Notes under the pieces: model-generated
Told to the model about the DNA's origin: nothing
What the model saw: only the letters and a program-made list of their open reading frames with translations
Database searches by the model: none
Translations under genes and position numbers: made by a program
Shown: one piece after another, positions 58,426 to 62,258 of the stretch
Layout: every line of letters begins with the position of its first letter
How positions within the stretch are numbered: position 1 is the first letter of the stretch
Assembly: GCA_050014495.1 (NCBI GenBank)
Contig: JBEKDF010000008.1
Location: 25,587-89,586, forward strand
Direction of reading: 5' to 3'
Length of the DNA: 64,000 nt
Source of the DNA: Candidatus Bathyarchaeia archaeon
GTDB lineage: Archaea; Thermoproteota; Bathyarchaeia; TCS64

Positions 58426-58546
58426 TTCAATCACCTGATATAACAATCGAAGGTTTGTAGATAAAACCTTTCAAGAGAGATTTTTTCATTGCACGAGCTG
58501 TCAAGATAAGGTTATTCTAGCTGTGGATGAATTTCGGGACAGGCCG

Positions 58547-58708
58547 GCGCGCATACTATCGTCCGCCATCAACAGGCGTGACGTGCTTCTCACCGAGGAC
58601 TCACTCATCCACGCCCTGACCACGGATGAGGTCTATGGGAGGCTGGTTGGGGAGATCAACCCCGAGTTCGTGGTCTCATCCCACAAGGCTCTGCCAGGCT
58701 TGATGTGA
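58547..58708 (+). pseudogene. C-terminal fragment of a PIN-domain (VapC-like) protein
   Basis: ILSSAINRRDVLLTEDSLI resembles the PIN C-terminal D..I.A.A....L.T.D..; no N-terminal DTN motif. Confidence 0.4.
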
Positions 58709-58828: not shown

Positions 58829-59251
58829 GTTAAGTGGATTTGTTAAGCGTGTAAGGTTGATTGGTGACTCTGTTAATGGATGTTAGTGGTGTTAGCGGTG
58901 TTGTCAAGTTTGTTAAGTGTGTAAAGTCGCGGTTTCGGAGATGTGGACATCTCCATAGGCTGGGACGTGTGGGGACGTGGGGTTCGGGGAGTTTAATGAA
59001 ACCTGTTTGACGCATGGGCAGGTCATGTTTTGGCTTAACATGTGTCGTCTAGGGGTCTGCGGGGCTTAACGGGTGGGTTACGAGGTTAACAGGCGGCTTC
59101 TGGGGTTCACAGGTCTCGTCTGTGGTTTACACCGGCTGTGGTGGGTTAACGTTGGCGGTGGTCGCTGCTTGTTGGGTTCACGATGTGGGATTGGTCTTCT
59201 CAGTGGGTGGTTCGGGTTAACGATGGTTTGTTACCTTCTATTTTGCTTAAC
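58829..59251 (+). repeat. G/T-skewed region with phased TGTTAA and GGTTAAC-like motifs
   Basis: GSTTHAC copies at 59033, 59064, 59084, 59104, 59124, 59144, 59175, 59215, 59245. Confidence 0.75.
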
Positions 59252-59307
59252 GGTGATTTTGTCAACGATTATATGGTTGAAGCGTCGAGGTTTTTCTTGA
59301 GCCGTGT

Positions 59308-61155
59308 ATGCCGCCCCTTGATAAGAGCAGAGTGCTTGGGATGCTGTTCAGGGGGTACTCCGCTCGGGAGGTGGCGAAGAAGTTTGGCGTAAGCAACGTC
59401 ACGGTCTCGAAGACGTTGAGGGATTTCGTCTCGGAGGCTGAGGGGGCTAACAGTGTTTTGGCTGCTGCTGAAAAGCATGGGATAGAGGAGCAGGTGAGGC
59501 AACTCATCGCGATCGGTGGGGTGGTGGAGGAGACTAAGGTCGACGCATCTAGGGCGGGTCTGGGGCTTAGAATCGTCAAGGCCGTTGAGGGGTTCGGCGT
59601 GGATCCTGATGGGGTCCCAGGCTTCATCGAGGCTGTGAACAAGGAGGCCTCTGATCAGCACCTCTCGGCGGAGACGTTCGTGAAGGTGGTGAAGGGAATT
59701 CACGGCATGAAGGTCGATGGGATGAGCGACTACGTCGCCTTCGAGAAGTCTGTCGAGGCTAAGCATGGTGAGTTCGAGAGGCTCGATGATCAGGTCTACG
59801 AGTACGAGGGGAAGGCCGAAGCGGCTAAGGCGCAGATGGATGAGGCGGTTAATAAGAAGAACACCACCTTGGAGGAACTCGATGATTATGTCGCCCTCAG
59901 GGACCGCCTGACGCCACATGGCCTCGACCTCCGCGATGTGGATAAGGCGGAGAAATGCCTCCTTAACATCAAGGAGCAGGGTAGTGATCCCGTCGCCGTG
60001 GTCGCAGTTTATTCGCGGGACGCTGAACTCTCGAAAAAGGTTAAGGATATGGAGCTGAGAGTCGGGTATCTGTCGAAGTCGGAGTTAATCGCGGGGAATA
60101 AGCTGAACGAGACGAACAAAGAACTGGAGTCGAAGACGGAGCTAGCTGAAAGGGTTAGGGAGGCGGAGGCCCTAGGTCTCAGGCCTTCCCAACTTGGCTT
60201 ATTTGTTGAGAAGGCCCGTGAGGTGGGGGCTAGACATGGCCTGGGGATGAAGGAGTCGATTAGTCGTCTCGAAGCGGATCTAAGGGAGAACTGGGAGCCG
60301 AAGCTGGGCTTCGAGAATAATAAAACGAAGCTGGTTGCTGAGCTGGATCAGTGGGATGAGAGGGTCGAGCTCGCCGAGGAGAGGGAGAGGGTTATTCTTG
60401 AGAAGGTCAGGGCTCGTGAGGGGTCGTTCAAGGAACTCGAGGAGCTTAGAAAGCATGTGAGTGCGAGTGAGCTCGTCGAGTTCAGGCGCGTCATCGTTGA
60501 CAGTGGACAGAATGTGCCATCGTTCCGAGGTGAGGTTGAGAGGCTAGGGAGCGTAACTGCTGCGGTTGATGCCGCGAGGCTGAGGAAGGAGGCAGATGTC
60601 GCTAAGCTTGAGACCAGGGTAAAGACTCTGGGTGCTCAGGTCGAGCAGCTGAATAATACGAAGACCCAGCTGGAGGCGAAGATCCTCACACTCAATTCGA
60701 ACGCCATCGAGGCCATCACCAAAGCCTCAAACACCATGGAGGATATGGCCAAGGGTTTGAAGGAGGACTTCGAGAACCCTGAAACGGGTTTCAGAGCGAC
60801 GATGCAGACCATAAAGACTTATGCTACGGCGGAGATGAACCAATCAATAGCTGTTCAGCGTGAGAGCTTCGAGCAGAGTATAAGCAAGTTCAAGAAATTC
60901 ATTGAACGTTCCACCGCTGAAGTAAAGCAGCTGAGAAATAGCAGCTGGAACACAGGAGAACTCATCGGCTACAACGTCCACCTTTTAACCCTCGCGAAGA
61001 TCGTAGCCGGCGAACCCGTGGAGAGGATGCAGACGTTAGTAACCATGCAGATGACGGTCAATGCCTTCGCGGATTACCTCGCCAAACTAGACTTGGCTAA
61101 ATACTGTCCAAGCTGTATGAAGTTTATTGATGAGCTTAGAGGCCAGATGGCTTGA
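59308..61155 (+). CDS. N-terminal HTH plus long coiled-coil protein
   Basis: GYSAREVAKKFGVSNVTVSKTL HTH; extensive E/K/L heptads; no Walker A seen. Confidence 0.85.
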   Translation: MPPLDKSRVLGMLFRGYSAREVAKKFGVSNVTVSKTLRDFVSEAEGANSVLAAAEKHGIEEQVRQLIAIGGVVEETKVDASRAGLGLRIVKAVEGFGVDPDGVPGFIEAVNKEASDQHLSAETFVKVVKGIHGMKVDGMSDYVAFEKSVEAKHGEFERLDDQVYEYEGKAEAAKAQMDEAVNKKNTTLEELDDYVALRDRLTPHGLDLRDVDKAEKCLLNIKEQGSDPVAVVAVYSRDAELSKKVKDMELRVGYLSKSELIAGNKLNETNKELESKTELAERVREAEALGLRPSQLGLFVEKAREVGARHGLGMKESISRLEADLRENWEPKLGFENNKTKLVAELDQWDERVELAEERERVILEKVRAREGSFKELEELRKHVSASELVEFRRVIVDSGQNVPSFRGEVERLGSVTAAVDAARLRKEADVAKLETRVKTLGAQVEQLNNTKTQLEAKILTLNSNAIEAITKASNTMEDMAKGLKEDFENPETGFRATMQTIKTYATAEMNQSIAVQRESFEQSISKFKKFIERSTAEVKQLRNSSWNTGELIGYNVHLLTLAKIVAGEPVERMQTLVTMQMTVNAFADYLAKLDLAKYCPSCMKFIDELRGQMA

Positions 61156-61673
61156 CTGAGTATAATCATAGACTTCGAGAGATGATACAGGTCAAGGAGT
61201 CACTGAATTCTATCGCGTCGAAGACCAAAGATGTATTTGATGCCAAGATGAGGGCGACGGTGAAGGGTCTACTCGACGACCACTACGCCCTGGAGGGTCT
61301 TACGGTCGAGGATGCTGAAGGGATGAGGGCTCATATGCGGGTCGTTGAGGTCAGTGGCCAAATCGCAGATAAGTTACTTGGCGTGGATGGGAGCAATTTC
61401 AGGCAAACACACAGGAGCAAGATGGATTGGGATTATGATAGGCCAAGAAGGGTCTTAGAATATGTCAAGAAGATAGCAGACATCATCCCCGCTGAATACC
61501 TCACTAAGCTAATAAGTGATTCTCAAAGACTCACTGCAGAGGAGCTCATAAGTCGCTATGAAGCTGTGAAAGGCGAGGCGAAGCAGAGCGACTACAGCGG
61601 CCAGCCAAGTGGAATCGACCCAAAAGCATTCAGAATCATAGCAAGAATACGTAGGAAACAAGGTAATAATTAG
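61152..61673 (+). CDS. Hypothetical helical protein
   Basis: TTGA start/stop overlap with the upstream gene. Confidence 0.75.
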   Translation: MTEYNHRLREMIQVKESLNSIASKTKDVFDAKMRATVKGLLDDHYALEGLTVEDAEGMRAHMRVVEVSGQIADKLLGVDGSNFRQTHRSKMDWDYDRPRRVLEYVKKIADIIPAEYLTKLISDSQRLTAEELISRYEAVKGEAKQSDYSGQPSGIDPKAFRIIARIRRKQGNN

Positions 61674-61677
61674 GTAG

Positions 61678-61842
61678 ATGCACGAGCAGGCGAGGAGGAC
61701 CCGGTCAATCAGGATCCAGACCTATGTCGAGAAACTCGCCGACATATTCCCCGCCGAGTACCTTACCCACCTGCTGATCACCAGCCAGACCCACAACACC
61801 GAGGAACTCATAAGGATCTATGAGGCCGATAAGGCGCGCGCG
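61678..61842 (+). pseudogene. Truncated paralog of the C-terminal part of the 61152 protein
   Basis: YVEKLADIFPAEYLTHL...EELIRIYEADK versus YVKKIADIIPAEYLTKL...EELISRYEAVK; similarity ends at CGCGCGCG 61835. Confidence 0.55.
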
Positions 61843-61969
61843 ATCAGGCTCATGATTGAGGCTTTGTCCTCCTCGGATACCTCTTTTGAGTTCCTTAACC
61901 GCTCCAACGCTGAAGCTATATCTGGTCGGTCTTGTAGATGTCATCCTTTCTCGTGTCTCCTACACCCAT
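61835..61969 (-). mobile_element. Remnant 5' end of an archaeal tyrosine integrase gene
   Basis: MGVGDTRKDDIYKTDQ /frameshift/ IASALERLRNSKEVSEEDKASIMSLI; starts 35 bp after the tRNA 3' end, same strand. Confidence 0.5.
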
Positions 61970-62003
61970 AAGAAAAATACTTGAGGGAATTGAACTCGGA
62001 GTT

Positions 62004-62082
62004 TGGTGCTCCCGCCGGGATTTGAACCCGGGATCTCGGACTCGAGAGGCCCATATCCTTGACCGGACTAGACGACAGGAGC
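62004..62082 (-). tRNA. tRNA-Glu (anticodon CTC), CCA encoded, no intron
   Basis: GCTCCTG/CGGGAGC acceptor stem, TGGGC-CTCTCGA-GTCCG, CCGGG-TTCAAAT-CCCGG, ACCA. Confidence 0.97.
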
Positions 62083-62116: not shown

Positions 62117-62258
62117 GTTAACCCATTAAAAATTAAAGATCTAGGTGCTGTTCACATGCGTGCTTTCTGCTCCTTCCCCTCTCTCTAACACTATTATATA
62201 AAAAAAGCAAGCGAATTATGAAAAAATAAAGTCTGCCAAGCTATTATCGCGCGCGCAT

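Follow-up and report, generated by a model that had tools for sequence, protein, structure and literature searches.

A remnant of an integrase gene and the open reading frame facing it (ORF B) both end at one short alternating tract, GCGCGCGCG, which lies immediately downstream of tRNA-Glu(CTC), where a decayed island has its right end. The question is how these two ends came to meet, and where the bases between them come from. The window, i.e. the whole stretch of 64,000 nucleotides that was analyzed, is G000:C8:25587-89586, in which G000 denotes the genome under study. The host is an archaeon of peat; the metagenome runs containing DNA of the window are mostly from peat, and those homologs of a paralogous integrase that carry names belong to Bathyarchaeia. 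In the island, the remnant of an IS end (58498-58546) is followed by ORF C, ORF A and ORF B. The features are as follows, with the basis of each in parentheses.

58498..58552, minus strand: IS5/IS1182-like remnant end (58498-58546) with GCGCGC at 58547-58552, the left border of the island (sequence)
59308..61155, plus strand: ORF C, 615 aa, cargo of the decayed island (all Pfam matches under cut-off)
61152..61673, plus strand: ORF A, 173 aa (no Pfam family at cut-off)
61678..61834, plus strand: ORF B, truncated short paralog of ORF A (match to ORF A)
61834..61842, no strand: junction scar GCGCGCGCG (tract scan, X17 contig, ORF-family homologs)
61841..61916, minus strand: integrase stub, frame 2 (A-S-A-L-E-R-L ... 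S-L-I), the last parental bases being 61841-61842 (profile match)
61916..61917, minus strand: frame-shifting loss of one base (extra G in X17 contig; G005 stub one base longer)
61917..62003, minus strand: integrase stub, frame 1, last residues K-D-D-I-Y-K-T-D-Q (homologous stubs G000:C11 and G005:C15)
62004..62082, minus strand: tRNA-Glu(CTC), the integration target (ARAGORN)
62248..62256, no strand: second GC scar, on the opposite side of tRNA-Glu (tract scan)

ORF C has an HTH-like N-terminal part and then a long coiled-coil-like part, and ORF A is located after it in four relatives. The stretch upstream of ORF C (window 58830-59260) shows a strong G/T bias and repeated GTTAA words, without a long ORF.

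An integrase remnant and a facing gene that end at one GC tract

The maximal alternating tract, GCGCGCGCG, occupies 61834-61842 and includes the 8-mer (61835-61842) at which an earlier note on this DNA had seen the integrase stub and the paralog similarity of the facing ORF stop together. Both indeed end there. The ORF at 61678-61971 matches that at 61152-61673 in 26 of 47 residues (E 3e-13) up to residue 55, which is the position of the tract; its reading on to 61971 is chimeric, being antisense of the integrase stub.

The other side of the tract could be identified by a profile. The DIY and ALERL...EEDK..I parts of the stub lie in two different minus-strand frames, one base being absent near 61916, behind which a related X17 contig has an extra G. 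Direct searches with the 40-aa stub piece gave no match in Pfam, in 61 genomes or in the protein database because the piece is too short, whereas the profile route succeeded: an N-terminal profile made from 120 tyrosine integrases (PF00589), relatives of a paralog on contig C44, matched 61821-61940 of the minus strand with E 1.7e-7, the next best among 2497 six-frame pieces of the window having 0.5, and the match finishes at S-L-I-A-R, at the GC tract. The earlier assignment to a tyrosine integrase is thereby borne out, and by homology the stub is identified as the start of a tRNA-Glu-linked tyrosine integrase split by a one-base loss. Its homology is to the N-terminal region, as the note had proposed, but its first residue is probably not the true N-terminus of the protein, because frame 1 is open upstream through the T-arm of the tRNA (G-F-K-S), which is also the case in int(C) halves, and because two homologous stubs (G000:C11 and G005:C15) have AAG and AAT in place of the ATG at 61969. 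The frame is likewise open at C11 and C44, and 6 of the 120 called homologs show this T-arm read-through. The catalytic domain, present in the C44 paralog, is deleted in the window. Taken alone, the stub represents a decayed integrase of an ordinary kind. The C44 paralog itself (G000:C44:18776-19868), an integrase at tRNA-Leu, is nearly complete; a 10-base GC run and an IS end interrupt it near the C-terminus.

SSV-type integrases carry the att site inside the integrase gene (PMC7253208, PMC8371274). The integrase considered here resembles such suicidal archaeal enzymes, e.g. Int pT26-2, in having a tRNA 3' end as att site, in an att that apparently lies inside the reading frame and in a tRNA-side piece that looks like an int(C) half. 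Unlike SSV-type integrases, its homologs carry PF00589, PF16795 being in none of the precomputed domains of the 120 listed homologs, and the intact C44 paralog has H-x-x-R (H-L-L-R) in place of the K-x-x-R of the R...KxxR...Y signature. No int(N) half was found at the other border, and a search for the 30-mer of the tRNA-Glu 3' end that allowed up to 4 mismatches matched tRNA genes and nothing else; that border is possibly deleted. By analogy, the enzyme, of which no free element was seen, would fit an SSV-like way of working; we say this and not that it is a member of the SSV, pTN3 or pT26-2 families because the signature residues and the Pfam domain differ and no int(N) was found. In G012 (G012:C2:143437-145283; L012 and L022), the tRNA-Glu region is partially matched a second time ~1.7 kb from the first match, a possible att duplication.

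The origin of the tract can be followed most closely on the integrase side. An intact integrase, 95% identical, is present in X17 record 8 (1278 bases), in which 61841-61963 align with five differences and one gap (the extra G); beyond the alignment the record continues for 1154 bases, its first loose letters on the minus strand being L-I-D-H-M-L-A-K-G. At the position of the tract it reads A-T-C-G-A-C-C-A-C (I-D-H) and has only the final CG in common with it, so that seven of the nine tract bases (61834-61840) do not come from the integrase. On the other side, the ORF-family homologs have G-E-A or N-E-A at this position in 7 of 7 distinct genes (in a K-G-E-A context), whereas ORF B reads A-R-A; its parent could give the first G of the tract or, had a G been lost, perhaps as many as three bases. 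Since no intact ORF B was recovered, the count of filler bases on this side comes from paralogs at 29-57% identity. With this qualification, we infer that about six bases (61835-61840) derive from neither parent. The site shows a deletion join with non-parental GC bases on the integrase side, a pattern repeated at many joins, and offers a clean case, in which an intact parent is available and a shared recombination site is excluded.

Breaks beside GC runs in other strains and across the genome

Other strains were compared through their contigs, which demonstrate the presence of an arrangement but not its frequency; metagenome runs sharing few words with the window were left out. In X17 record 9 the same integrase is broken at 61927 beside CGCGCGCG, where the intact sequence has one CG, and in X13 and X12 a break at 61681 lies beside GCGCGCG, where the window has one GC. 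Four bases past the point at 62248 where the window breaks, X13 has a further break, with a different right flank and a GCGCGCGC of its own; it has neither the IS end nor the run at 58547-58552, one C being in common. X17 record 7, a copy of the ORF family, has a 10-base run shortly before its aligned part. In the homologous tRNA-Glu stubs G000:C11 and G005:C15 the end falls at other codons, again at alternating runs, which are GC-rich but shorter. Breakpoints in this DNA lie elsewhere in other strains, and each has a GC run of its own.

Such runs are abundant in the genome under study. CGCGCGCG occurs 367 times in G000 versus 28-31 expected under Markov models of order 2-3, and thus not by chance. 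GCGCGCGC is the most over-represented 8-mer (512 observed vs 29-30 expected, 17-fold). Other dinucleotide repeats show mild enrichment at most. Maximal runs of 8, 9, 10 and 11 bases number 192, 144, 111 and 5, a sharp cap at 10, and 393 of 459 runs of at least 8 bases lie outside ORFs of at least 110 aa, a part that makes up 17% of the DNA. The cap is less sharp in G021 (25 runs of 10 and 8 of 11).

We then asked how often homology breaks at the runs, using 874 tract flanks and 1580 control flanks of G000 and counting those in which a homolog reaches the tract. Sixty-three of 65 such flanks break there, compared with 20 of 155 controls; the bases in common between tract and break partner are 0, 1 and 2 in 22, 21 and 9 of the 63. 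The same test in G021 (2.0 of its 2.3 Mb) gave breaks at 14 of 21 tract flanks vs 6 of 42 controls, seven of the 21 being colinear. There are also fragments of ~160-590 bases bracketed by runs and internal deletions sealed by runs, a few of the underlying matches being to loci of G000 itself; the counts given are those of the flank test. Together with the intact X17 parent, these counts uphold the earlier proposal that CG tracts are deletion or rearrangement joins, of which G000 has hundreds. The tract of the window is accordingly best described, from sequence comparison, as filler written at a deletion join, because the intact integrase and the ORF homologs are without the run, the breaks are strain-specific and homology breaks at tracts genome-wide.

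Candidate writers of the runs

Our main reading, to which we give a probability of about 0.5, is that a deletion joined the tRNA-Glu integrase remnant to the gene facing it, that the GC repeat was likely added by a dedicated, template-guided end-joining polymerase belonging to this archaeal lineage and that the IS5/IS1182-like clade is a passenger. A double-strand break would be followed by trimming of the ends; a polymerase would then put a short (GC)n tail on each 3' end, primed by 0-2 matching bases. Since (GC)n is self-complementary, any two ends could anneal through their tails, and fill-in and ligation would leave 6-10 alternating bases, with loss of the intervening DNA, here at least ~1.15 kb of integrase and the end of ORF B. 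We infer this sequence of tail addition to both ends, annealing, fill-in and ligation from the scars. The cap at 10, which would reflect a short template, and the self-complementary filler both fit such a template; purging of runs longer than 10 as Z-DNA is another possible cause of the cap. The members of the clade would insert into GCGCGC runs. Somewhat more tentative is the wider proposal that this archaeal family has an undescribed repair route, in which a polymerase would copy a short template (possibly its own RNA, in telomerase-like fashion) onto broken ends, the self-complementary GC tails would allow homology-free deletion, fusion and capture, and an IS clade would have become specialised in the scars as landing sites.

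Alternatively, the clade itself might write the scars, its ends carrying or creating a GC run on insertion, adjacent deletions fusing distant DNA and excision leaving the run behind. This explanation, which we consider unlikely though worth serious attention, accounts directly for the runs with the same cap at IS ends, also in scar-poor genomes: alternating runs of 5-10 bases, capped alike, precede 43 of 47 IS ends in G000, and IS ends in the scar-poor G001, G025 and G027 carry runs of 8. The GC flank is the same in clade members that are 29-47% identical and differ in their inner repeats; at 5 of 6 IS-end flanks that could be mapped, only 0-1 run bases are in common with the parent; the number of scars per Mb is correlated with that of IS matches (rho 0.50 across 37 family genomes, which as kin are not independent); and an IS end borders the island in the window. 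However, the clade has no match in G013 (334 nine-mers), G015 (117; 20 contigs), G003 (60), G028 (37) and G017 (26), drafts that are 84-95% complete, while G030 has nine clade matches yet three nine-mers. G000 has ~460 solo runs vs 47 IS ends. Furthermore, no simple insertion is seen among the 16 IS ends with a mappable flank (a sample of low power), no two IS ends map side by side in a parent, the flanks of intact IS copies are unrelated sequences where mappable, and the missing tail of the IS-cut C44 integrase is absent from the G000 assembly. We therefore read the IS as inserting into scars, given the five scar-bearing drafts without a match, its frequency in scar-poor G030 and the lack of simple insertions. 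Even if the IS were the writer, a transposon writing new sequence at its ends would be unusual.

The remaining explanations have lower standing than the polymerase proposed above. End joining by Ku and LigD, with repeated slippage of its polymerase writing the runs, is suggested by the presence side by side in G000 of genes for Ku, LigD polymerase and a ligase-like protein (G000:C3:64298-67463, L123). It is nevertheless improbable and largely refuted, since the presence of these genes across genomes does not follow the scars: Ku and LigD are present in G001 (0 nine-mers), G010 (1) and G018 (6), whereas they were not found in G021 (one contig, 182 nine-mers), G029 (123), G032 (89), G033 (82) and G022 (82). 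Recombination or slippage between CG tracts already in both parents, as the earlier note had supposed for this join, would agree with the fact that tracts do mark breaks and with the 11 of 63 break partners that have at least four tract bases in common; but 52 of the 63 share two at most, the intact integrase has two of the nine tract bases and the seven ORF homologs have no run. For this join it is refuted on the integrase side, and in general we regard it as very improbable. An assembly or library artefact, which might be suspected because draft contigs often end at IS copies beside runs, is hardly credible. The join is spanned without differences by one 2291-base contig of run X5, although this gives weak independent support, X5 being possibly the source of this DNA; different strains have different joins with their own runs; and the excess follows lineage, nine-mer counts ranging from 0 to 429 within the family and not exceeding 17 among 24 genomes outside it. 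Of note, the cluster of Ku, LigD and ligase-like genes is found in most of the genus and in only one other genus of the family.

As to the nature of the IS clade, six members scored best with IS1182 (73-176 bits, cut-off 270) and IS5_4 (44-105, cut-off 140), all under every NCBIfam cut-off, and terminal inverted repeats are present. The IS ends may resemble ISH1, which a literature search did not confirm. The flanks of intact copies allow a GC target duplication of 4-6 bases (two copies allow at most 4), no empty site having been found; an 8-base target duplication was rejected, since about half of the IS ends differ in the two outermost bases, whereas the inner bases are constant. What we take, by motif, to be an IS110-like transposase lies exactly between a GC run and an IS5/IS1182-like end at L094:2568-3876 and in G000 at C17 57461-58774 and C48 5777-7090; the non-coding end of this element has a conserved GCGCGCG, a possible target guide of a bridge RNA. 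With the IS5/IS1182 families, including IS1272 as described in the accessible part of PMC5678879, the clade shares a DDE transposase (PF01609 and PF05598), terminal inverted repeats and palindromic surroundings. According to the same part of that paper, IS1272 replaces inverted-repeat targets without duplication and, unlike the present clade if it were the writer, is not reported there as adding new bases (PMC5678879).

Known relatives of the filler and the search for its polymerase

The scars can be compared with three known phenomena. N-nucleotides of NHEJ and templated inserts of Pol theta are filler DNA at end-joining junctions, and the present joins resemble them in having new bases between the ends, 0-2 shared bases, deletions and captured fragments; they differ in that the filler is one fixed, self-complementary repeat of capped length, neither random nor copied from the flanks, and does not track Ku/LigD. 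Repeat addition of the telomerase type at internal breaks puts a fixed short repeat on broken ends, as would be the case here, and the cap is compatible with a short template; but here the repeat joins ends instead of capping them, and no reverse transcriptase match, template RNA or matching primase was found. HIP1 of cyanobacteria is a highly over-represented GC-rich palindrome of eight bases, whereas the present runs are of variable length and phase, most of them are located outside ORFs, and intact parents do not have them.

Little is understood of how broken DNA is rejoined and accessory genes are shuffled in archaea that have no clear end-joining pathway, and a literature search, with few subscription papers within reach, found no description of such scars or of such a repair route. 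If joins are made with a fixed self-complementary filler, arbitrary ends would become compatible in a new way, each scar marking a past deletion or capture event in the genome. The new evidence presented here consists of a near-identical intact parent, independent breaks at strain level, a break test run with controls on two genomes and the exclusion of Ku/LigD.

The search for a polymerase that could write the runs covered several families. Reverse transcriptase (PF00078), Prim-Pol (PF09250) and AEP-TOTE (PF22548) had no match in G000. In G021, PF01896 and two primase profiles returned the housekeeping primase only, although a more divergent family could escape them. Two extra genes with a primase fold are present in G000, of 268 aa (mobile) and 439 aa, neither of which was found in G021. 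The former (C53) was rejected as writer since it is mobile and mostly in fragments, its conserved upstream piece is without a GC run and it was not found in G021, G011 and G008; the latter (C20) was rejected for having no conserved GC run nearby and for its absence from the G021 matches. The 439-aa protein (G000:C20:26047-27366) is a second PriS-like protein, encoded next to an oligosaccharyltransferase-like gene and conserved in four relatives within the genus.

A template RNA was sought by DNA match, tract position beside orthologs, fold energy and intergenic match between G000 and 2.0 of the 2.3 Mb of G021, with none among the matches listed, which comprised coding matches, known RNAs and one pseudogene remnant at C63; neither was a conserved GC run found outside coding sequence when G000 was compared with 87% (2.0 of 2.3 Mb) of G021. 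A possible RNA is a non-coding, GC-rich sequence of ~187 bases (G000:C2:107375-107560 and L278:16244-16422) that is 79% identical across two genera. Finally, a conserved repeat of ~33 bases, one frame of which has the core E-S-G-G-S-E-D-K-A-I-E, recurs every 0.6-1.5 kb near tyrosine integrases and the 268-aa primase on G000 contigs C50, C53, C74, C75, C77, C84, C86, C90, C24, C16, C40 and C44, in an array that looks like one of gene cassettes.
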